Positions 25,323-62,060 are shown, counted from the stretch's first letter. The stretch: DNA of 64,000 nt from an uncultured bacterium (GCA_963716985.1 OY970323.1:1760001-1824000); one strand, 5' to 3'. Program-made: numbers and translations. Notes: generated by a model from the sequence alone, not told the origin.

Positions 25323-26810
25323 TTAAGCGCTACGGTCGCATGGGCGGGAAAGAAGCTCTTTTTCTCTTATACCAGCAGCTCCTTTCTGCAGATCCAGCGC
25401 TGTTGTAAAAAGAGCGCTTAGGACAAAGAAAGGAATCATGCCCCCTTGCAAAAAAAGAGGATAGAAGTCAAAAAGAGCAATGGCCAAAAAGCCCGCAAAA
25501 GAGGCAAGAAGCAAAGAGGCCTCGAGAGAAAGAGATTCTTTTTTGATCCTCAAAAACTGGGAAAAGAGAAAGCCGAAAAAGCAAAACAGGGCGACAAGAC
25601 CCATCTCCGCTGCGATCAGCAAGTAGCAATTATGGGCCATATGCGCCAATTTCCCTCCTGAAATCGCATTGGACGCCTTCATAAAATTCTCTAGTCCAAC
25701 ACCGAAAAAGGGATGGTTTTTGATCAATACTAAAGCAGCGTCTTGAGCGGCCCATCGAGTCGCATCGCTACTTTTTGCAAGTTCATTGTATTGAAATACT
25801 CCTCCTCGATGAAAAAACTGTTCCCCAAAAAAAACAAAAGAAACCAAAAGCGAGAGCAGAATCACGCCGATCAGTCCAACCCACGCTCTTTGAAGAGGGA
25901 CGCTTTTTTCTTTTTCTTGCCGGAAAAAAAGAAGAAGAAAAAAAAGTGCGCTTGCACCGATCCAAGAAAAAAGCGCCGCTCGAGAAAAAGTCACGCTCAA
26001 TGCAAGCACTTGTAGAAAAATGCCGCAGGCAACACTTCTTTGCACCCATCTCCTTTTTGCATGAAAAAAAAGCAGATAAGAGGCCAAAAGAGCGAAGACA
26101 AAATATCCTCCTAAGATATTGGGATGGTTGAACGTGCCGTAAGAGCGCAAGATCACCTCAGGTGCTCTTTTCCATCCGAGCACCCGATCGCCCAGCCACC
26201 GAAATCCGGAAGGGACATGCATACTGCATGGATTCGTCATTTCAGAAACGGGGATCCATCGAAAATGAAGCAGGTCCAGAGAACTTTGAATATAATAGCA
26301 ATAAAGAGCCACGATCGACTCGATCACGGCAATACTTGCAACAAGGTAGAAAATCCGGTGTAAAAATTTTTCCCCACCCTCGCGCAGGAGAAAAACCAGA
26401 GAAGAGAAAAGCAGTATTTTCGTAAAAAAGATAAGCAGTCGGAAGCTCTCTCTATGGTCGAATGGAAATTCACTTAAAATTAAAGAAACAACGCCCATCG
26501 CATAAAACAAGAGAAGCCATCGAGACGGACAGGTCCAAAAAGAGGAGATCCATTCTTTTTTCGAGCGGAAAAAAAAGAGAAAAAAAATGAAAAGGATGAT
26601 CAGGTCGGATAAATAAAAGCTCAATTTCAAATGAACAAAGGGCTCAAGCGCGTGGATGTGCCACTTGAAATGAGAGGGTTCTAAAGGAAAAACAAGCAAG
26701 AGGAGAAAGAAAAGCCCTCTTTGCATTTTTGCAATCGTCGAATCGATCATCCTATTGACGGCGCGGAGGAAGGAAGCACCGCTCCTTTTGTTGGTTTTAA
26801 GTTGTGCCAT
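25323..26810 (-). CDS. O-antigen ligase family membrane protein
   Basis: RSYGTFNHPN, TFSRAA, HPFFGVG, AHNCYL..AAEMG; many TM segments. Confidence 0.87.
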   Translation of the reverse strand: MAQLKTNKRSGASFLRAVNRMIDSTIAKMQRGLFFLLLLVFPLEPSHFKWHIHALEPFVHLKLSFYLSDLIILFIFFLFFFRSKKEWISSFWTCPSRWLLLFYAMGVVSLILSEFPFDHRESFRLLIFFTKILLFSSLVFLLREGGEKFLHRIFYLVASIAVIESIVALYCYYIQSSLDLLHFRWIPVSEMTNPCSMHVPSGFRWLGDRVLGWKRAPEVILRSYGTFNHPNILGGYFVFALLASYLLFFHAKRRWVQRSVACGIFLQVLALSVTFSRAALFSWIGASALFFLLLFFRQEKEKSVPLQRAWVGLIGVILLSLLVSFVFFGEQFFHRGGVFQYNELAKSSDATRWAAQDAALVLIKNHPFFGVGLENFMKASNAISGGKLAHMAHNCYLLIAAEMGLVALFCFFGFLFSQFLRIKKESLSLEASLLLASFAGFLAIALFDFYPLFLQGGMIPFFVLSALFTTALDLQKGAAGIREKELLSRPCDRSA

Positions 26811-27008
26811 CTGCTAGCTGCACATTTTGGCAGCATCGATAATTAATGCCATCCATTTTTTCAAAGAGGGTTGGCCGACGATTTGGCTCTTCCTTAAGAT
26901 CCCTTTTTCAAAAATACAATGCGGAAAGTCTCTTATTCATTTTTTTTATGTTCATATGATGACAAAAAATTTAAAAAAAAATATACGTAGGTAAAGAAAC
27001 ACACAAAG

Positions 27009-29297
27009 TTGTTTATGCCCCAAAAGTTCCTAGGAATCCTTATTTTTTTTCTCCTTATCACGCGTCCATTCCCACTCAATGCGGATACAATCTGGACAGG
27101 AACAACATCATGTGACCTATATGATCCCACGAACTGGTCTCTAGGTCGTCCAAGCCCAGTGATCAGCGCCGATTTTGGCGCTTCCGGTTGTTTGAATCCC
27201 ATTACAAATGTGGCTTCTCGCGACATAAGCGCTTTTTCTTTGGTTTTTACAGGAAACAACAATTATACGTTCACCATTTCTAACGGTGCCAATCTAGATG
27301 TGTATGGTGAAGGTATTAGCCTTCCTCCCTCTCCTCCCAATATAATATTCAATGTGATTAGCTTGTCGAGTACGCTGAACTTTCACAATTGTTTTTTGGA
27401 TGCCGTCGTCATTAATGTCAATGGCGCCGGAACTCTTCAGGGAACGATGGACGGAAGTAATGCCGCAGTCAGTCTGGGGGTACCGACCCAGGGTAACATC
27501 ATACTTGATGGGAATTCATCCCTTGGCTTCTTATCGAGCAGTTCTGCCAATGACGCAATACAGCTACAGGGCCACGAGCTCAGCGTAGGAAACCTGGGGT
27601 TATCTTCAACAATTGTCGGACGAATTGTTGACAGCCTCGGATTTTCTGGAAGCCAATTGACCAAAACTGGCCTTGGAACCTTGGTTCTTTCCGGTTCGAA
27701 TAGCTATTCAGGCCCGACAACCATCTCGAACGGAAGGCTCAACGTGAATGGCACGATTAACTCTCCGGCAGCAGGTGTTGTGGTAAATTCCGGAGCAACT
27801 CTTGGAGGAACGGGCACCATCACGGCAAATATTGTCACTATAAATGGGACTCTGAATCCCGGCAACTCTATAGGAACTCTAAATGTTGTAGGTCCTGTTA
27901 CTTTTAACTCCTCATCCAACTATTTGGTAGAGTTTGATGCTGCCCATTGCGATCTTTTGAACGTTACAGGAAGCGTTACGATTGATCCCGGCGCCTCTGT
28001 TACACTGCAAGCCGATCAAATGATTGCCAATAACACCGTTTACCCGATTATTACAGTAACAAGCCCCCCCATTTCGGGCACATTTACGTCGCTCAATAAC
28101 CCCTATCTTTTTCTAACAGCCCAGCTTTCTTACGCCTCTGTCAACCAGGTACTTTTATTGTTAAGCAGAAACACCTTTGCATCTGTTCTTCCTAGTAATG
28201 CTCCATCGAATGCGATCGCTACAGGAGGTGCCTTAGATCAGGTAAATCCTTTAGGCGGCAGCGATCTTGACAATATCGTAGGTGATTTGATGCTGACGAC
28301 AAGTTTAGATGTGATCATCCACGATCTTTTGCAGATGCAGCCCTCCCAAATCAAAGCCCTTGGAGTTTCCGAGACCAATACCACAGTGCAACTACATTCT
28401 ATCATTGCCGAACATGCCGGCAGTTATATCAAGACTGCTTGCACTATAGAGAGTAGAAAAAAGTGGAGTGCCTGGGGCGATCTTTTTGGAGTCTTCTCTC
28501 ACCAATCCATGCTGCATGGCGAGCTTGGCTTCCATGACAAAACAGGCGGCGGTCTTATTGGTATCGACGCATCGCCCTGCAAAAACCTCTCAGTAGGAGG
28601 GGCTCTTTCCTATACATTTACCCATTTGGATTGGAACCACAACCCCTCCCATGCCACGGTCCAAAATGGTTATGGCATTTTCTATACAAGTTGGTACAGC
28701 AAACACTTTTTTGTCACATCTGCGGCCACTTGCGGCTACAACCACAACGATGTAGACCGCAACATTCTTTTGTTCACAAGCCCCATCAATACCACAGCGC
28801 ATAGCTCTTTTTCCGGCGTCGAGGGAAGCGGCTTTATGGAAATAGGCGCCATTGCAACTGATCAAAAAGCAGAGTTCAAACCCTTTGTATCTCTACATTA
28901 CTGCTATCTACACCACAACCATTTTAGAGAAAGGGGTGCCGACGGGCTCAATTTGAAAGTAGACGATGCCAATGCCAATCTATTGCGCAGTGAAGCAGGG
29001 CTCCAATTTTCTTCCTGCTACAAACGAAATGAGTATGAATGGATTCCACGCCTAACTGCTTCAGTAATTGAAGAGAATCGCTTCAAAGGAAAGCACTATC
29101 GAACTGAATTTGTGGAAAATCCCGGCGTCTTTTTCACTGTCAAAGGCCTACGGCCCCAGCACACGCTGTTTTCTCCAAAGGCAAGCATACAGCTCAAAAA
29201 GGGGGAAAATCTTTCTCTCTTTTTAGGATATGAGGGAGAGTTTGGCTCAAAATTTCATAACAACAGGGCCCATTTGTTTGTGAACCGCTCCTTTTAG
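27009..29297 (+). CDS. autotransporter with passenger-associated transport repeat
   Basis: Signal peptide, LTKTGLGTLVLSGSNSYSGPTTISNGRL, PGNSIGTL, C-terminal beta-barrel ending in F. Confidence 0.88.
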   Translation: MFMPQKFLGILIFFLLITRPFPLNADTIWTGTTSCDLYDPTNWSLGRPSPVISADFGASGCLNPITNVASRDISAFSLVFTGNNNYTFTISNGANLDVYGEGISLPPSPPNIIFNVISLSSTLNFHNCFLDAVVINVNGAGTLQGTMDGSNAAVSLGVPTQGNIILDGNSSLGFLSSSSANDAIQLQGHELSVGNLGLSSTIVGRIVDSLGFSGSQLTKTGLGTLVLSGSNSYSGPTTISNGRLNVNGTINSPAAGVVVNSGATLGGTGTITANIVTINGTLNPGNSIGTLNVVGPVTFNSSSNYLVEFDAAHCDLLNVTGSVTIDPGASVTLQADQMIANNTVYPIITVTSPPISGTFTSLNNPYLFLTAQLSYASVNQVLLLLSRNTFASVLPSNAPSNAIATGGALDQVNPLGGSDLDNIVGDLMLTTSLDVIIHDLLQMQPSQIKALGVSETNTTVQLHSIIAEHAGSYIKTACTIESRKKWSAWGDLFGVFSHQSMLHGELGFHDKTGGGLIGIDASPCKNLSVGGALSYTFTHLDWNHNPSHATVQNGYGIFYTSWYSKHFFVTSAATCGYNHNDVDRNILLFTSPINTTAHSSFSGVEGSGFMEIGAIATDQKAEFKPFVSLHYCYLHHNHFRERGADGLNLKVDDANANLLRSEAGLQFSSCYKRNEYEWIPRLTASVIEENRFKGKHYRTEFVENPGVFFTVKGLRPQHTLFSPKASIQLKKGENLSLFLGYEGEFGSKFHNNRAHLFVNRSF

Positions 29298-50946: not shown

Positions 50947-51957
50947 TTAGAATGCAACCGACAGGGTCGTAGAGAGCCCCTGCATGTGCAGATGTCCGGG
51001 GAAAAAGTTCGAGGTCGGCGTTTGCGGATCGTTCGGATCAAAGACAAATTGTCGGTCCACTTCATGAATGCAGAAAAAACTATTGAGCTCATAGCCGACA
51101 AAGAGAAAAAGCTTCCACTTTTGAAACTCATATTTCCAAGAGGGCCCAAGCAGAAACTGGAGCTGGGTCACCACGCGAAAATCATCATTATGGGCATGGA
51201 CAATATAACCCATCGCGCCCCCAAATGGATGGGAGCGAATATTGAAACGATTGTCGTGATTGCCGAACAGAGCACAGCCGCACACCCTTGCGTGCAAGCC
51301 AAGGCCCCATTTCATGAGCCAATCCATATCGAGTCCGATCTTGGGCCCTCCCCCTTTAAAATTCCAATCATTCTTGATGTTCAAAGAATTGGCGCTCTTG
51401 GCAAGGCTGTCGTAGTAATTCACTTCCCATCTCTGGCGAAACCAGACGGCGCTCATCGCGTTAATCAGAGTCAAATGCAGATAGGGAGTCGTTTCAAACA
51501 TTCTCTTCAAATAAAAATCCGCAAAATGGGTCCTGAGCGAAAGATAGCTCGTGGCCCGTTCGATGTTGGTTAAAGGAAATTGCGGGAAAATACCCTGGAA
51601 ATGGCGCCCCTCATGCCGCATATGGTCTTCTCTCTGCCAGGGATCGTAATTTCCATATTGAACTTCGAACTGCCATTGATCGGGAGCAAAGGTGTATCCC
51701 ACCGATACCCGAAACCCCCCTCTCCAATAAAATTTTCCGATCTTCATCTCGTCGGTCAGTAGATAATTGGGCGTTAGAGTCGCTACATCGTCATAGACAT
51801 ATTCCAGTCCATCTTCATAGGTATTCCAGCAAAGAAAATCCCCCTGGACCGTCCAGGGAGTCCTTTTTTCTTTTGACATCTCTTGAGTCTTTGGCTCTAC
51901 GTCTGCAGATAAAAAACCAAAACCTAAGATCAATAGTCCAACCAAGGCCCGTCTCAT
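50947..51957 (-). CDS. Lpg1974/MOMP-like outer-membrane beta-barrel
   Basis: Signal peptide, GFRVSVGY, GGGPKIG, GYELN, terminal F. Confidence 0.78.
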   Translation of the reverse strand: MRRALVGLLILGFGFLSADVEPKTQEMSKEKRTPWTVQGDFLCWNTYEDGLEYVYDDVATLTPNYLLTDEMKIGKFYWRGGFRVSVGYTFAPDQWQFEVQYGNYDPWQREDHMRHEGRHFQGIFPQFPLTNIERATSYLSLRTHFADFYLKRMFETTPYLHLTLINAMSAVWFRQRWEVNYYDSLAKSANSLNIKNDWNFKGGGPKIGLDMDWLMKWGLGLHARVCGCALFGNHDNRFNIRSHPFGGAMGYIVHAHNDDFRVVTQLQFLLGPSWKYEFQKWKLFLFVGYELNSFFCIHEVDRQFVFDPNDPQTPTSNFFPGHLHMQGLSTTLSVAF

Positions 51958-52134
51958 AGAAAAACTCTTTCTTGCTTTTTTTTAGGGTATCGATCAAGAA
52001 ATTTATTGACAATCTCATTCTGAAAGAGGCAGGGATCCTTTATGTTTTTTATTTAGCTTTTCAGAGGAAATCGGCTTTTAGAACGCGCCAAAAGCCGATT
52101 TTTCAAGTTCCTTGAATATAATGAACAAAATCGA

Positions 52135-53124
52135 TCAAAAACCCAGACCAAGAGATAAATAAGGCCCCTGATCCGTGTAATTGTAAAAATGCGCACGGGT
52201 TTCACCAACAGCATTGGCAATAGAGTCGAGTTCAGGAATGGCATTCAAAAAAACAGAAAATTCATAGCCCATTTCAAGAGCAACGGTTGTACCGTGGAAA
52301 GTTCCATTATACCCCAAGCCGGCGCGTAGGTTCCATGCAGGGATTACCGTCCAAGTTCTTTCCTGCCTTCCTGTCCAATCAGCACCTAACGTATTATCAT
52401 AAGTAAACTCTGCGTGGGTCTGTGAGACGAGTAAGCTTCCTGTAGCTAAAACCTCTAATGAAAAAAAGGAGCAGGGATCTTTCTCATTTTTCCAAAATCG
52501 ATAATGTCCGTTAATCCCTCCTTGGGGACCTATTCCTAAAAAATGGGTAAACAAATGTGTGTCTTCCAATTGCGTTCCATCATAATGATTATAAAAGCGA
52601 CGATCGGTATGTCGGATATGTGCATATTGCGCTCCTCCTACAAGATGCAATAAAAGGTGTCGCGAACAATACGTTTTTCTTTCCCAAAGAAGGGAAACGT
52701 CATCGTTATAGAGACAAACTTTTGAAGAAGCCGATCCGTTATATGACCCTCTCGCAGCAGTCGATCTACTTCCGGGCGATGTTTGGGTTGGAGAAAGTGC
52801 AAATCCGACAATCACACGTCTTTCATGGCCATTTAAGTGTGACCATTCCAAAGAGAGACAATTCAAACCATTAGAAAAACCATACAATGCTGCGACTCGA
52901 AATCCCGGTTTAAAACCCAAAGAATTTTCTTTTACAACACCACTGCCAATATTTCCCGCACTAGGAGTAACTTCATTTCCATCGAACACAAAATAAGTAT
53001 CTCCTACATTTGGAAGCAGATAAATTGCTTCTCCTTGAATAGTAAATGTTCCCGGAGCAGGAAATTGCTGCGCAAACAAAAAACTACTCATGAATACTGC
53101 TAAAAACGAGAACAACTTTTTCAT
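52135..53124 (-). CDS. Lpg1974/MOMP-like outer-membrane beta-barrel
   Basis: Signal peptide, PGFRV, GIGPQGG, GYEF, QGPYLSLGLGF. Confidence 0.78.
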   Translation of the reverse strand: MKKLFSFLAVFMSSFLFAQQFPAPGTFTIQGEAIYLLPNVGDTYFVFDGNEVTPSAGNIGSGVVKENSLGFKPGFRVAALYGFSNGLNCLSLEWSHLNGHERRVIVGFALSPTQTSPGSRSTAARGSYNGSASSKVCLYNDDVSLLWERKTYCSRHLLLHLVGGAQYAHIRHTDRRFYNHYDGTQLEDTHLFTHFLGIGPQGGINGHYRFWKNEKDPCSFFSLEVLATGSLLVSQTHAEFTYDNTLGADWTGRQERTWTVIPAWNLRAGLGYNGTFHGTTVALEMGYEFSVFLNAIPELDSIANAVGETRAHFYNYTDQGPYLSLGLGF

Positions 53125-54972: not shown

Positions 54973-56616
54973 ATGTCTACTAAAATCGAAATCTTACAAA
55001 GAAGCTCTACGGCCTCGACATCCATCGATGCCCTGCAAGAACCCCAATCACTTGCGTATCTTGACTGCAATGTTCTCGAAATCATTGCACAATCATTGCA
55101 GCCGCGAGACATGGCAGCCCTTGCCGCAACCTGCAAAACGCTGCGTCAACTGATGAATCATTACACCACTGCAGTTGTGGAGGGCAAGCGCGTCGTCACA
55201 CCCGGCATTATTACGACGGAATTAAGACAAAGAATGATTCGTTCGGATGCGAACTTCAATATCGTTACAAAAGACGTCTGCGATCTGCTGATTAAATATT
55301 CAGAATATCACGCATGGCTGCGTGCGCATCAAGCATTAGACGAGTCCCAGGCAGGCGATAAGCAGTCCTATATCCATTTGCGCGCTTTCCCCGATATGAA
55401 TGACGAACAATTAGAACAAATCATCAAAACTCATCCGGAGATAAAAACTCTCGACCTTTCCTCTTGCACAAATCTCACACCGGCCGGCCTGTCCCGTATC
55501 TTATCTAGCGCTCTCGCACCTCATTCTTGGGGACTTGAACATTTGGACCTATCGTCCAGGGAAATTGACAATGCACAATTAGAGCAAATCATCAAGGCTC
55601 ATCCCCATCTGAAATCGTTAAAAATTTCGTCCGAAAATATCACCCCGGGCGGTCTTACCCATATTTTATCGGACAAATCCATCCTGCCTTGTCTGGAGCA
55701 TTTGGATTTTTCGATTTTTCCGCACGTTAATAAGGAACAACTCAAGCAAATCATCGGAGCCCATCCCCGCCTGAAATCTTTAAGACTCGAACACTGCGGA
55801 CTCTCCGGAGAGGACCTGGCCGATATCTTATCTGCCGCTCAAAATTCTCTGGACCTTGAATATTTGGATTTATCTAGGACAGATATCCATGATGAAGAAT
55901 TAGAGCAAATCATCAGAGCGCATCCCCATCTGAAGTCTTTAAAAATCGTTCTTTGCAACAATCTCACCGGAGACGGGCTGGTCCGCATCTTAGCTTCTCT
56001 GGATCTTGAATTTTTGGATTTGTCTTTTCGTAATGGAAATATCGGTGGTGCACATTTAATGCAAATCATCAGAGATCAACCTCGTCTAAAATCTCTATCT
56101 CTCCGCCGGAACCCCAATCCAGCCGAGCTGACCCCTCTTTTAGGTAACGCATCGGAACTTACTTGCTTGGAGCATCTAAATCTATCTTTTACAAATGTTC
56201 TCGATGAGCAATTAGAGCAAATCATCCAAGCTCACCCCCATCTGAAATCTTTAAAAATCGCTCTCTGCCGGAAGCTCTCTGCAAAGATGACGGCCCGTCT
56301 TTTAGGCACTGCATCTTTACCGGAGGTGCAGCTTTTGGATGTAACTGGACACAAAATATCTGATAAACAATTAATGCAAATCAGCAAAGGCTGTCTTCAT
56401 TTGGAATCTATCTTCCTTTCAGCTTGCGATAACCTCACTCGTGGCTGCCTGCACGATCTTGCAACCCATCCCACCTTGAAGGTAATCTATCCGCCTCCTT
56501 CCTGGGAACCTGGAATATTCGTAAAAAAAGGATTTGGGCATTTTAGACCCTACAATTTTGTCGACCAGCCACCCCCTATCGCTTCTAGCTCCTATAATCC
56601 TTGTAGTTTGCAATAA
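54973..56616 (+). CDS. F-box-like + LRR protein ending in CaaX-like CSLQ
   Basis: N-terminal L....L..I...L...D...LAATCK.L; repeats LEHLDLS...I...QLEQII.AHP.LKSL. Confidence 0.82.
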   Translation: MSTKIEILQRSSTASTSIDALQEPQSLAYLDCNVLEIIAQSLQPRDMAALAATCKTLRQLMNHYTTAVVEGKRVVTPGIITTELRQRMIRSDANFNIVTKDVCDLLIKYSEYHAWLRAHQALDESQAGDKQSYIHLRAFPDMNDEQLEQIIKTHPEIKTLDLSSCTNLTPAGLSRILSSALAPHSWGLEHLDLSSREIDNAQLEQIIKAHPHLKSLKISSENITPGGLTHILSDKSILPCLEHLDFSIFPHVNKEQLKQIIGAHPRLKSLRLEHCGLSGEDLADILSAAQNSLDLEYLDLSRTDIHDEELEQIIRAHPHLKSLKIVLCNNLTGDGLVRILASLDLEFLDLSFRNGNIGGAHLMQIIRDQPRLKSLSLRRNPNPAELTPLLGNASELTCLEHLNLSFTNVLDEQLEQIIQAHPHLKSLKIALCRKLSAKMTARLLGTASLPEVQLLDVTGHKISDKQLMQISKGCLHLESIFLSACDNLTRGCLHDLATHPTLKVIYPPPSWEPGIFVKKGFGHFRPYNFVDQPPPIASSSYNPCSLQ

Positions 56617-56797
56617 CCGCATTCGTGCTGCACGATCTTGAAGCCGCCTCGACTTGGGAAGAATAGATCCGCCTCCTTCCCGAGAACTTGAAGCGTTTAT
56701 AATAGCATGCTCAGATAAGTTTTTTATCTTTTTAATTTGTAAATTAATCGTTAATTTGACATAATTGTTTAATTGAAAATCAAACAATGAACTTAAA

Positions 56798-58484
56798 ATG
56801 ACAACCTGCAGCTCAACATCCGCAGTTCTTCAAAATTGCGACTCGACCATTCTAGGATAACATCGCAGAACATTTGCAACCAAGAGAGATGGCAGCACTT
56901 GCTGCAACCTGTCGCAACCTTCATCAACGGATGAACCATTGCACCGTTGATGCTAGCGGAAAGCTCATTGCAACCGGCGTGATCACAATGGAGCTAAGAC
57001 GAAGATTAGATCCGGGCGCTCATTTCAATGTCGTTACCAGCGACAAGCTGACGCTGCTGGTTCAATATTCAGACTATTCTACGTGGCTGCGTGCGCATCA
57101 AGCATTAGACGAACCCTCGGGAAGAGACGTAGAGCCGTATATGCATTTGCTTGCTTTCCCACATATTCAAGACGAAGAATTAGAGCAAATCATCAGAGCC
57201 CATCCCTCTATAAAAACTCTTGACCTTTCCCTTTGCAAAGAGCTCACCCAAGCCGGCCTGGTCCGTATCTTATCTAGCGCTCTCACTCCCGATTCTCAGG
57301 GCCTTGAACATTTGGACATGTCTTCCAAAGTCATTGACAATGCACGATTAGAGCAAATCATCAGAGCACACCCCCATCTAAAATCGTTATATGTCTGCCT
57401 AAACGAACCTGCCCCTGTTTTAGCAAACGAATCTCTACTACGTCATTTGGAGCATTTGAATTTATCAACGATGATGATTAATGAGGAACAATTCAAGCAA
57501 ATCATCAGAGCACACCCCCGCCTGAAATCTTTAAAACTCAGACACTGCGAACTCTCCGGAGAGGCCCTGGCCCACATCTTATCTGCCGCTCAAGGTTCTC
57601 TAGACCTTGAATATTTGGATTTATCTTGGAAAGATATCAATGACGCACAATTAGAGCAAATCATCAGAGCGCATCCCCATCTGAAATCTTTAATAATCGC
57701 TTTCTGCAGAAATCTCACCGGAAAGGGCCTGGTCCCTATCTTATCTGCCGCTCAAAGCCCTCTAGACCTTGCATATTTGGATTTGTCTTCGATACACATT
57801 CACGACGCACAATTAGAGCAAATCATCGGAATGCAACCTCATCTCAAATCTCTATGCCTCGCAGACTGTAGGAAGCTCACCCCAAATGGACTGACACATC
57901 TTTTAAGTGACGTATCGAAACTTCGTTGCTTGGAGCATCTGGCTTTGTCTCCCATTGGTATTGATGATGCACAATTAGAGCAAATCGTCAGGGCTCATCC
58001 CCGTCTGAAATCTTTAAAAATCGCCGGCTGCCCGAACCTCACCGGAAACGGGATAACCCATCTTTTAGGCGCCGCATCTCTACCGGATCTGGAACATTTG
58101 ACGTTAGGAACACCCTGTTCAGGGCGATGTGCCATCAATGCTGCCCAATTAGAGCAAATCATCAAAGGCTGTCCTAGTCTAAAGTCTTTATTTCTTGGGG
58201 CAGGGCCGTTCGATCATCTCACTCCTGACCTCCTACAGGTCCTTGAATGCCACCGCAACCTCAGGGTAATCCTTCCTACCGGATGGTTGGGGCACGACGA
58301 GATCTTCGCAAAAGATGGCCTTGGGCATTTTGGACCCTACAATTTTGTCGAGAGAATATACCCTATCCCCCAGCGACACTCTAACCGCGTCATATGTGCT
58401 GTCACAGGAATTGCCGTGCCGATTTTCGTTGGTCTTTTTGCCATCGCAAGTAGATACTTCCTGTATCAAAAATTTTTCAAATAA
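56798..58484 (+). CDS. paralogous F-box-like + LRR protein with C-terminal TM; apparent +1 frameshift near 56858
   Basis: ATG 56798 gives MTTCSSTSAVLQNCDSTILG*; similarity to the paralogue resumes in another frame (IAEHLQPREMAALAATC, ORF 56874-58484). Confidence 0.75.
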
Positions 58485-58583
58485 AACGCTTTCTTCTTGT
58501 CTTAAAAAAAAACCTTACTTTAGCATTGCTCATCGATTCTCACTTGGGCGAAAGCGAGGAAAAGTTTTTACCGAGGCGTGTTC

Positions 58584-58830
58584 GTCAACCACCCCTCCCT
58601 AAAGGGAGAGGCTTGAGAATCAAGCCTGAAGTTGACCAGCCTTAGTCTTAAGGCAACTTGAGACTACGTTAGGAGCGAATATAATATATAGGCACCTTGG
58701 AATGCCGCCTCAGTTCTAAGCTCTGCGGTTAGCAGTTAAACCAAGCGTACGGGTTAAACCAGTGCTGTTAACATGGTAAACCGCTCCATAACTTTGGCGA
58801 GGGGAACTTTACCCGGGAAACCGGAGATTG
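58584..58830 (+). ncRNA. omegaRNA / HEARO RNA scaffold
   Basis: GTCAAC...GTTGACCAG, GACTACGTT, TAGGCACC..GGAATGC..CTCAGTTC...CTCTGCG, TTGGCGAGGGGAAC.TTACC upstream of iscB. 3' end approximate. Confidence 0.85.
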
Positions 58831-58857
58831 CAGGTAACTGCTATTAGAAATTTGTGT

Positions 58858-60186
58858 ATGCAGAAAATGTTTGTATTAGACAAAAACAGAAAACCACTCA
58901 TGCCCTGCTCGGCACAGAGAGCTAGAATGCTTTTGTCTTCAGGAAAATCAGCTGTTTTAAAACGCTATCCTTTTACCATTATTCTTAAGGATAGAGAGTG
59001 TGGCGATGTACAAGATCTTGAGGTTAAAATTGATCCCGGAAGCAAAACTTCCGGAATTGTTCTTGTTGGAAATTTTCTAAAAGGGAGAAAAGTTCTATGG
59101 GCAGCAAACCTCCAACATAGGGGAAATGCAATCTCATTATCACTTACCTCTAGAAGAGCATTGAGACGAAGCCGCCGTCATAGAAAAACACCCTATCGCG
59201 CCCCACGATTTGATAATCGAAGACGAAAAGATGGTTGGATTGCTCCTTCTTTGCAATCTAGAGTGGACCATATTCACACTTGGGTCTCCAGATTGCAGAG
59301 ATGCTCTCCTATATCTTCCATCGCTGTGGAGACTGTACGTTTTGATACGCAAAAATTGCAAAATCCGGAAATCTCCGGCATTCTCTATCAACAGGGAGAG
59401 TGCCTCGGCTACGAGATCAGGGAGTATCTTCTTGAAAAATGGGGGCGAAAATGCGCTTATTGCGGCACAGAAAACACGCGATTAGAAATCGACCATATTG
59501 TTCCCAAGAGCCAAGGCGGAAGCGATAGAGTCTCAAATCTCATCATCTCCTGCAAAGAATGCAATAGAAAAAAAATACACAGGGACATACAGGAGTTTTT
59601 AGAAAACAAGCCCTCTATTCTATCCAAAATTCTCTCCAAGTCAAAAGTTTCACTAAGCGATGCTGCCGTAGTCAATGCGACGAGAGTAGCAATAGGTCGC
59701 GATCTTCGCTCCTTCAAACTTCCCCTCACATTTTGGAGCGGCGGTAGGACAAAATTCAATAGAGTCAAACAATCGTACGAAAAAGACCACTGGATAGATG
59801 CTGCTTGTGTTGGAGAAACAGGAGAGTTCGTTCGCATCGACAAAACATTTTCCCCGCAAGTGATCAGGGAAACGGGAAGAGGCTGCCGCCAATTCTGCCT
59901 AGTGGATCGATATGGATTTCCAAGAACGAGCGCCAAAAAGCAGAAAAGTGTCTATGGCTTCAAAACGGGAGACCTTGCTAGAGCCATTGTAACGAAAGGC
60001 AAAAAATCAGGGTGTTATCTTGGAAGGGTAGCCGTGAGGCTTTCGGGAAATTTTTGTTTTGACACATCCGTCGGAAAAGTTGATGGCATTAACTATAGAT
60101 ACTGCCAAAATATACAGATGGCAGATGGTTACATTTATTCAATCGAGAAACCAAACAAAAGGAGCAGCGCTTCCTCCCACCCCTAA
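58858..60186 (+). CDS. iscB: RNA-guided endonuclease IscB
   Basis: PLMP; RuvC-I IDPGSK; bridge helix RRALRRSRR; RuvC-II ETVRFD; HNH CAYC..DHIVP..NL..C..CN; RuvC-III HWIDA. Confidence 0.95.
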   Translation: MQKMFVLDKNRKPLMPCSAQRARMLLSSGKSAVLKRYPFTIILKDRECGDVQDLEVKIDPGSKTSGIVLVGNFLKGRKVLWAANLQHRGNAISLSLTSRRALRRSRRHRKTPYRAPRFDNRRRKDGWIAPSLQSRVDHIHTWVSRLQRCSPISSIAVETVRFDTQKLQNPEISGILYQQGECLGYEIREYLLEKWGRKCAYCGTENTRLEIDHIVPKSQGGSDRVSNLIISCKECNRKKIHRDIQEFLENKPSILSKILSKSKVSLSDAAVVNATRVAIGRDLRSFKLPLTFWSGGRTKFNRVKQSYEKDHWIDAACVGETGEFVRIDKTFSPQVIRETGRGCRQFCLVDRYGFPRTSAKKQKSVYGFKTGDLARAIVTKGKKSGCYLGRVAVRLSGNFCFDTSVGKVDGINYRYCQNIQMADGYIYSIEKPNKRSSASSHP

Positions 60187-60215
60187 AGGGATGGGTTTCC
60201 GCGCTGTCAAATAGG

Positions 60216-62060
60216 ATGAAACGGGCGTTGTTATTGTTCCTTCTTTTTGCCGCACGGGCAATGACAAGCCCTGTCCCTATCATTGTAGATTCCTATTCTA
60301 CGCACGATTTCTTAGGAACAAGCAGCGCTCAAGGAACGTCTATAGCCATCACCCTCGGCTCCACTTTGAACTTCCAAGACTCAAGCAATGCAGGAAATGC
60401 CGCCATCAGCACTAGCAACGATTCGTTTCTTAATTTTGAGCAGACAATCGCAACCACCTATTCCGGACAGTTGATGGGAAGCGGCTCCGTGACCAAAAAT
60501 GGCACGGGAACTTTGACGATGACGGGCAACAACTCGGGATTCCCGGGCCCTCTGTTTGTTCAGACAGGCACGCTCATTCTTGACGGTTCCTATGGAGGAA
60601 CAGTTACAGGATCTCCTTCTTCCACGATTATTTATGGCGGTCCGATTTCGGGAGATCTGCATGTAAACGGGACCATTACGACAACCGGCCTGAATACCCT
60701 TTCGGTTGCCGGAAATTACTTTCAGACAGCAAACGGCACGTACATCGCCAATATCAGCGCTTCCGGACAAAGCAGCCTGATCCATATCGCTCAAGCAGCC
60801 AATATTGCCGGCTTCGTTCAAATCGATGCATCAAGAGGAAGCCTCCTAAACCACACCTATCCAATTCTTCATGCAAATAGCGGCGTTACCGGAACCTATC
60901 AACTGATCAATCCCTACCCATTGCTCCAAGCATTCATTTCCTATGATGCCAATGACGTCTACCTGTCATTTATCAACAACATTGAAGCCGCTGCAGTGAC
61001 TCCCAATGAAAAAAACGTGGCCCAGCAGTTCAATCAATTAGTGCCGACTCTTCCCGATGAGCTCGTGCTTCTGAGCGCACTCCTTGTATTACCAATCCCT
61101 GAAGCAGCGGCCGCCTTGAATCAACTCTCCGGAGAGCAATATTCCAACTTTATTTTAGCGACTCTTTACGATAGCAGCAGATTCAATCGAAGAATCTATC
61201 GCTCCTGCCGCGATGCCATCTACCCTTGCGTCAATATTTGCGATACCGTCACTCCTTGGATCCGTTTAGGGGGAAGCAAAGGTGTTCAAAAAAGCGATCG
61301 GACGACTGCAGGCTTTCATTTTTCAACGATTGATATGAGCGCAGGGATGCACTCTTGTCTCAACAACTCTTGGCTCCTCGGCGGATCGCTCGGATATAAC
61401 GCCGACTTTATCCACCCGGACCTACATGGAAAACCAACCCTCAATACAGCCAGCGCTGCCATCTACTCACTGTTTCAAGTGAAGCGAGTCTTTCTCTTAT
61501 CAGATCTAATCGGCGCAAGAAGCTGGAGCGATTGCAAACGTCCCATTCAGTTTGGCTCGATCCACAGATTTGCCCATAGCCACCCTCGTATCTCCTATGG
61601 AAGGTTCGATCTGCAAATCGGCCTGGATGTCGGCAGCTGCCCGTTTCATCTACAACCCTACCTTGAGGGAAGCTACGAACTCTACCACCAACAGAAAATT
61701 CATGAACATGGAGCAGAATCTGCGAACCTCTTGATCTCTCCCATCACCAGAGGGCTAATGAGCAATCAGCTCGGCCTTCATTTCGGCACAAACCGCAGCA
61801 AAAAGCTTTCGCTTGATTTTGATCTGTCCTGGAAACATTACTATGGCCGTTTGCGAATGAGCGAAACGACTCGTTTTAAAGATTTTGGGACCCCTTTTGT
61901 GATTCAGGGCCCGAAGCATGGGGCGGACGGAGCCGTGGGCTCTCTCTACTTCTCTAATTCCATTGAAAGTTCTTGGGGTGTCTATTTGGGCGCCGAGGGG
62001 GAGCTTTGGAAACATTGGTATGATTACGATATTAATGGAGGCGTTAGCTATCGATGGTAA
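60216..62060 (+). CDS. autotransporter with passenger-associated transport repeat
   Basis: Signal peptide, VTKNGTGTLTMTGNN, ALNQLSGE, beta-barrel ending YRW. Confidence 0.87.
   Translation: MKRALLLFLLFAARAMTSPVPIIVDSYSTHDFLGTSSAQGTSIAITLGSTLNFQDSSNAGNAAISTSNDSFLNFEQTIATTYSGQLMGSGSVTKNGTGTLTMTGNNSGFPGPLFVQTGTLILDGSYGGTVTGSPSSTIIYGGPISGDLHVNGTITTTGLNTLSVAGNYFQTANGTYIANISASGQSSLIHIAQAANIAGFVQIDASRGSLLNHTYPILHANSGVTGTYQLINPYPLLQAFISYDANDVYLSFINNIEAAAVTPNEKNVAQQFNQLVPTLPDELVLLSALLVLPIPEAAAALNQLSGEQYSNFILATLYDSSRFNRRIYRSCRDAIYPCVNICDTVTPWIRLGGSKGVQKSDRTTAGFHFSTIDMSAGMHSCLNNSWLLGGSLGYNADFIHPDLHGKPTLNTASAAIYSLFQVKRVFLLSDLIGARSWSDCKRPIQFGSIHRFAHSHPRISYGRFDLQIGLDVGSCPFHLQPYLEGSYELYHQQKIHEHGAESANLLISPITRGLMSNQLGLHFGTNRSKKLSLDFDLSWKHYYGRLRMSETTRFKDFGTPFVIQGPKHGADGAVGSLYFSNSIESSWGVYLGAEGELWKHWYDYDINGGVSYRW

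Follow-up and report, generated by a model that had tools for sequence, protein, structure and literature searches.

An IscB transposon end at a host start codon as a probable replacement for the ribosome-binding site

Introduction

Here, we describe an insertion in the genome of an uncultured bacterium (GCA_963716985.1), within a 64,000-nucleotide stretch (OY970323.1:1760001-1824000) that was analysed whole, is called the window below and provides the numbering. An IscB/HEARO element of the IS200/IS605 type occupies positions 58584-60215 (1632 nt), where it splits a GAGG ribosome-binding site (RBS) from the ATG of an autotransporter gene, an arrangement to which an earlier note on this DNA had drawn attention. 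Judged from sequence, a non-autonomous IscB transposon has probably settled at an ATGAA start codon in such a way that its ATG-side end supplies a replacement RBS, split by a hairpin, which would keep the host gene translated.

An IscB element between a ribosome-binding site and a start codon

The left junction (58583/58584) reads TTACCGAGGCGTGTTC followed by GTCAAC and the right junction (60215/60216) AAATAGG followed by ATGAAACGG. The HEARO model RF02033 matches 58584-58812 (131.7 bits, model positions 1-211 of 211), a start that coincides with the element end, and iscB (58858-60186) scores 434 bits against NF040563 (cut-off 175), its open frame encoding a protein of 442 amino acids (aa) with RRXRR (PF14239) and HNH (PF01844) domains that can be aligned to the solved IscBs and whose nearest named relative is in a Rhabdochlamydiaceae metagenome-assembled genome (69%), suggesting that the source is an environmental chlamydia. 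Removal of the element in silico leaves GAGG (58573-58576), 7 nt and ATG, and both subterminal hairpins contain a C-A mismatch that becomes G-T in the fold of the minus strand, where the locus reads TTCAT|element...TTGAC. A second full copy (C1:166141, 96%) lies in the same 2.07-Mb genome, as do many gene-less or partial copies; this copy, the other family ends of the source genome and public-run contigs with loose ends at 58584 and 60210-60221 agree with the boundaries. The earlier note had thus correctly placed the element, its edges and strand logic, the mismatches and the RBS spacing regained on removal.

Subterminal imperfect hairpins and a fixed target of 4-5 bp, with no terminal inverted repeats and no target duplication (the junctions and the lack of duplication being judged from orthologues at four other sites rather than at the autotransporter site), are the traits of ISC transposons, and by every feature testable here the element is a member of that family. 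Two intact tnpA genes and one broken copy are present in the source genome, none of them beside a family end. No intron family scores above its gathering threshold in the window, so that the group I intron by which an IStron is recognized is missing.

The autotransporter site is not special, being one of many family sites. At the four others mentioned above, the rpsF, ybbR, sctL and ntpE orthologues are element-free in five of five relatives, and in a same-genus genome the sequence at the join agrees with the reconstruction for ybbR and ntpE. The junction is confirmed by these orthologues at the four sites. The empty allele that the earlier note proposed to look for was not found at the autotransporter gene: the source genome contains no empty allele of this site, four public runs contain no empty-site joint (only contigs were available, which inform on presence and not on absence), and 40 relatives contain no autotransporter orthologue above 29% identity. 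Six exact 19-mer metagenome matches to the empty site proved to be unrelated genes. In the reconstructed empty allele, the autotransporter frame has a stop 20 codons before the ATG and no other start codon between the two. Three of the eight paired copies sit in ATGA stop/start overlaps, where the element extends the upstream gene by 5, 5 and 10 codons to a new stop; in 12 of the 13 IscB loci examined, the new stop lies in the hairpin loop (element base 17), a phase that could be chance.

Family ends abut start codons throughout the source genome

A covariance model of the terminal hairpin, which excludes the ATG and includes only the last two bases of the Shine-Dalgarno (SD) motif, found 22 full-length ends in the source genome, 150 of 761 candidates having been scored. 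Of these ends, 20 abut the ATG of an open reading frame (ORF) of 79-742 aa, and the earlier note's question of whether other copies also precede start codons can be answered in the affirmative. The genes concerned include rpsF, ntpE, adk, ruvC, sctL, sctC, ybbR and namZ, and Pfam matches were obtained for 15 of the 18 downstream proteins scanned (S6, V-ATPase E, Adk, RuvC, SctL, SctC, MIP, YbbR and others). By crude gene calls, 7.2% of all ATGAA sites lie at or near starts, rising to 29.5% among those where an insertion would not break a gene, and 20/22 departs from the latter with p=3e-9.

Twelve of the 22 ends are solo. The two that do not open an ORF are one lying just before tRNA-Glu and one with neither the SD motif nor a gene downstream. 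A 340-nt mini-element (L027:1144-1290, minus strand; G000:C1:1919143-1919569) stops a few bases before tRNA-Glu and tRNA-Lys, and the ATGA there opens no gene. Two further mini-elements share a divergent intergenic region (G000:C1:1002542-1004272, L023), placed back to back and each ending at a start codon, of a 79-aa ORF and of ntpE, respectively. Two partial model matches (G000:C1:341816 and 1479559) were excluded from the count and are other IS200/IS605-like hairpins, one of them within a long perfect inverted repeat. A replication-strand bias was unconvincing (13 of 20 in the expected direction), and a preference for SD-bearing targets was considered and rejected, since four of eight paired flanks have an SD and three are stop/start overlaps, with no excess over ordinary starts.

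The ATG-side end has the layout of a split ribosome-binding site

By the cut-off used, an SD precedes 56% of 625 ordinary starts in the source genome versus 27% of internal ATGs. At the family ends, a normally spaced SD is found in 0 of 20 gene-start cases in the source genome and in 1 of 58 in relatives. What the ends carry is AAAGGAG, 51-54 nt 5' of the ATG and at the base of the 5' arm of a 7-bp stem, the 3' arm of which stops about 8 nt before the AUG. This motif is kept in 19 of the 20 gene-start ends of the source genome, and GGAG is conserved at 88-97% in 33 genomes, with variable flanking bases. The element SD of the autotransporter copy pairs more strongly with the 3' end of the source genome's 16S rRNA than the orphaned host SD does (-8.1 versus -5.9 kcal/mol). 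In a structure derived from the same sequences, pairing in the outer stem reaches 93.9% and six of seven pairs show compensatory changes; GTCA is separated from the ATG by 5 nt in most relatives (45 of 58; range 3-8). The sequence features of a split RBS are therefore all present, namely an SD too distant to act directly, the lack of a canonical SD and a conserved stem between motif and start.

The window contains a second family remnant (26751-26860, minus strand), which lies directly against ATG 26750, the start codon of an O-antigen-ligase-like gene of 475 aa. The inner TnpA hairpin has been lost from it and the motif, outer stem and spacing retained, making this remnant the best single case of domestication.

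In the wider family, the end model matches 53 of 103 genomes, some of the matches being motif-less ATAA-type ends. We examined 165 ends from relatives, with high scores favoured; 160 from 46 genomes had 5' context and five were dropped (L335, L336 and two secondary matches were not tabulated). Among ends at ATGA, 102 of the 122 with an SD core precede ORFs of at least 60 aa, forming the majority in 36 of 43 genomes, as compared with none of the seven that lack it; at ATAA targets, the motif is absent from 23 of 24 ends. Under the first criterion applied, a pairing free energy (dG) of -5 or below, the first batch gave 58/66 versus 0/5 at long ORFs, and 44 of those 58 products have Pfam matches, including GyrB, NusA, L2, TopA and Pgk; the genes that follow the end in relatives accordingly include gyrB, nusA, rplB, topA and pgk.

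TnpB elements share the end, and four of the five motif-bearing ones lie at gene starts. In one TnpB family (in genome G347), the motif is present in a copy at a gene start and absent from another at a non-gene site. At one locus (L052, genome G228), the end that follows iscB lacks the upstream motif and has GGAGG in canonical form, 4 nt from the ATG, which suggests compensation for the missing motif. In Moorena spp. (L079-L126), a different IscB end places a canonical SD 7 nt 5' of the ATG, in what seems to be the terminal stem; long ORFs follow in 12 of 15 loci, the others being a short ORF, a contig end and a case in which the end was not found (one each).

Guide, target and target-adjacent motif

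A guide taken from the 5' flank and a target-adjacent motif (TAM) of ATGA(A) are predicted here by analogy and fit the expected values. GstIscB is described as having the TAM TTCAT and a guide taken from outside the element (Meers et al., bioRxiv 10.1101/2023.03.14.532601), insertion at N/ATGA has been documented for ISC elements (Kapitonov, Makarova and Koonin 2016, PMC4810608), and guides of 14-21 nt are reported to be tolerated by other IscBs (PMC11666462). For transposition, the four bases at the hairpin foot, assigned according to the IS608 architecture (PMC5934647), are GAAA here, and across 87 related ends this tetranucleotide tracks the target, being GA(A/G)A with ATGA and AA(A/G)A with ATAA, which is a correlation only. 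A search for self-targeting found no match to a 14-20-nt guide plus ATGA at two or fewer mismatches.

A replacement ribosome-binding site and its alternatives

On the favoured account, TnpA acting in trans would pair the GAAA guide of the end with TTCAT on the template strand and insert the element without duplication. Host transcription would then yield an omegaRNA with the old leader as its guide, such that IscB would cut only the empty allele, and on the mRNA the outer stem would loop out about 44 nt to bring AAGGAG to an effective 8 nt from the AUG. In stop/start overlaps, the other end would provide a stop some five codons later. With initiation and stop signals so supplied, insertions at starts would be tolerated and nearly neutral, and the host could keep the ATG-side end after the rest had decayed. 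With an SD and a covarying stem at its ATG-side end, the element probably substitutes for the RBS instead of acting as a translation switch.

Several observations weigh against this account. Replacement of the RBS would permit start sites but is alone insufficient for 84-91% of ends being at starts; a further contribution is needed, whether transcribed copies are retained, intergenic ones are lost or TnpA has a preference. The null in the source genome may exceed 30%, because the gene caller (81% coding) probably overcounts intergenic sites. In relatives, 20 of the 122 motif-bearing ends precede no long ORF, and the seven motif-less ATGA ends come from three genomes, five of them being of one family. 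The SD-core criterion was adopted after the dG result, under which batch two alone gives 42/54 versus 2/4 (p=0.24), the two exceptions retaining AGGA. The namZ end lacks the motif, yet a 410-aa gene follows. With regard to the RNA structure, the outer stem folds on minus-strand DNA too, the excess of G-U pairs on the RNA strand (40 versus 6) is mostly one closing pair (33) and otherwise 7 versus 5, a long-range fold of the autotransporter copy pairs the SD with signal-peptide codons, and the looped-out piece of 44 nt is longer than that of T4.

One alternative, which we consider unlikely, is that AGGAG and the outer stem act for TnpA at the DNA level, as CTCCT on the transposed strand, and that the start bias is purely one of survival, the host genes needing no SD for their translation or depending on coupling to iscB. 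The foldability of the outer stem on the minus strand and the motif-less namZ end both suit such a role, as do the minor binding role ascribed to a second left-end hairpin of IS608 (PMC5934647) and the 44% of ordinary starts in the source genome that lack an SD by our cut-off; coupling is made plausible by the iscB stop, 30 nt before the ATG in the autotransporter copy. However, mini and solo ends contain no iscB, a motif-less family in genome G261 has spread to at least five ATGA sites and the ATAA families manage without the motif, which therefore does not look required for movement, and the motif is kept in the remnant whose TnpA hairpin is deleted.

It is distinctly improbable that the start bias mainly reflects the needs of the element itself, whether guide production behind a host promoter combined with restoration by IscB or a TnpA preference for promoter-proximal single-stranded DNA, although these can operate alongside a replacement RBS. 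IscB elements are described as oriented with the upstream gene and in need of outside transcription (Meers et al., bioRxiv 10.1101/2023.03.14.532601), one copy stands before a tRNA, where an RBS is useless, and copies with near-identical twins are already at starts in 24 of 32 cases (78 of 90 for the others, p=0.16, giving no age effect). Against this, TnpB elements with the same end make their guide internally and are nonetheless at starts in four of five cases, and neither the motif nor its loss in ATAA families is explained. The dependence on a host promoter envisaged in the earlier note thus stands as part of the story, with the TnpB elements showing it not to be the whole.

A translation switch, as that note had proposed, in which insertion silences and excision restores the autotransporter operon, is very doubtful: the native RBS is indeed displaced by 1632 nt, in one fold the element SD is paired with codons of the signal peptide and two terminator-like hairpins lie inside iscB on the plus strand, but the element end has the stronger SD and the same end precedes rpsF, adk and ntpE, so that both states probably translate, and the end also precedes gyrB, nusA, rplB, topA and pgk in relatives, no empty allele or joint was seen in the source genome, the four public runs or the metagenome 19-mer matches, the empty allele should be a target for IscB cleavage and the resident tnpA genes lack an end of the IscB-end family.

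Returning to the replacement RBS, a broader version can be offered tentatively, with somewhat less than even confidence, as a 'safe docking kit' evolved by IS200/IS605 elements that are able to target a start codon: the TnpA-recognized end would be a hairpin-split RBS (a canonical one in Moorena), the other end an in-frame stop at stop/start overlaps, the host 5' untranslated region the guide and the start codon the TAM, with decayed ends domesticated as leaders of essential genes across Chlamydiota.

Comparison with known systems

The element resembles ISC1-1_MA, ISC2-1_HM, ISC2-1_MS and their IS605B partners in its iscB-only cargo, 5'-GT terminus and subterminal hairpins, in insertion just 5' of ATGA without duplication and in having one end common to oppositely oriented TnpB elements; the main text of that study (PMC4810608) describes neither a start-codon bias nor an end-borne RBS and does not contain the terms 'start codon', 'translation', 'Shine' or 'ribosome'. 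With ISGst5/GstIscB and its PATE-like derivatives it shares the TTCAT target and TAM, a guide from the outer flank, outside transcription and gene-less copies moved in trans, although the available text of Meers et al. (bioRxiv 10.1101/2023.03.14.532601) reports only an orientation bias relative to the upstream gene and has no occurrence of 'ribosome binding' or 'translation'. At the IS608 left end, the target is dictated by a 4-nt guide lying 5' of the hairpin, in line with the correspondence between tetranucleotide and target seen here, but the IS608 target TTAC cannot be a start codon and no RBS role is given in the text available (PMC5934647). IStrons, likewise of IS200/IS605 type, also reduce harm to host genes at the RNA level, by splicing out of coding regions (PMC13565253), whereas the IscB element would supply initiation and stop signals.

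The closest parallel for the RBS itself is in T4 genes 38 and 25, where an intervening stem brings a distant SD to working distance over a spacing of 22-27 nt (PMC3014915), as compared with 51-54 nt at the transposon end. Unlike in T4, the stem doubles as a transposon end and precedes many unrelated host genes, and its function is predicted from sequence. Term searches of PMC4810608, bioRxiv 10.1101/2023.03.14.532601, PMC9755519 and PMC13565253 did not find docking with an end-borne RBS. More generally, no description of start-codon docking with an end-borne RBS was found in the literature searched. Integration at ATGA was reportedly noted by Weinberg in 2009, and that work or Altae-Tran in 2021, or the supplement of either, may mention start codons.

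If correct, this arrangement would show how an RNA-guided transposon can have its guide transcribed and spare host genes, even essential ones, with no need for splicing. It would also give a reason for the recurring ATGA(A) targets and TAMs among IscBs and make the end a split RBS of natural origin, widespread and with a spacing double that of T4.

Features and neighbourhood

Table 1. Features of the insertion and of the related remnant (window positions)
Feature	Position	Strand	Basis
Host leader, predicted omegaRNA guide, with orphaned RBS GAGG 58573-58576	58568..58583	+	sequence; anti-SD pairing -5.9 kcal/mol
OmegaRNA-side end with GTCAA and a C-A-mismatched hairpin (58592-58611); right IS end when read on minus strand	58584..58615	+	
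HEARO / omegaRNA scaffold	58584..58812	+	RF02033
Loop TAA, stop in frame of ATGA stop/start overlap	58600-58602	+	
Predicted guide G_R, CAAG on minus	58612-58615		G/C pairing by analogy with IS608
iscB; stop codon inside terminal hairpin loop	58858..60186	+	
Element-borne SD AAAAGGAG, 52 nt 5' of ATG (linear)	60157..60164	+	-8.1 kcal/mol
Two-level terminal hairpin	60164..60207	+	folds; covariation
Outer stem of terminal hairpin	60164-60170 pairs 60201-60207	+	
Inner TnpA-type hairpin	60176-60195	+	
Predicted guide G_L, GAAA on minus	60196-60199		G_L varies with target class
Unpaired 8-nt tail, stem to host ATG	60208..60215	+	folds
ATGAA: host start codon, transposon target (TTCAT on minus), predicted TAM	60216..60220	+	
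Host autotransporter gene, 614 aa	60216..62060	+	PF03797 + PF12951
Beta-helix gene overlapping 3' end of autotransporter gene	start 62054		
Second family remnant: iscB tail, AAAAGGAG and outer stem kept, inner hairpin deleted	26751..26860	-	

The downstream product, called an adhesin in the earlier note, is an autotransporter by its PF03797 domain, from which 'adhesin' is a guess. Within the omegaRNA region, a 5-nt duplication creates a near-consensus sigma-70-type promoter at 58658-58685 (11 of 12 positions), TTGAGA-16-TATAAT, which could drive iscB and the autotransporter gene; as a family feature this internal promoter was rejected, the duplication being present in only one of six aligned copies. 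A promoter-like stretch seen by eye at 58497-58526 was not flagged by a promoter scan.

Two paralogous genes in tandem on the 5' side of the element (54973-58484) encode leucine-rich-repeat proteins (547 and 536 aa) with eukaryote-like repeats, possibly secreted and interacting with the host. The pair is preceded at 50947-53124, on the minus strand, by two tandem genes for outer-membrane proteins of the Legionella_OMP family (PF05150), and a second autotransporter gene (27009-29297, 762 aa) is divergent from the O-antigen-ligase-like gene.

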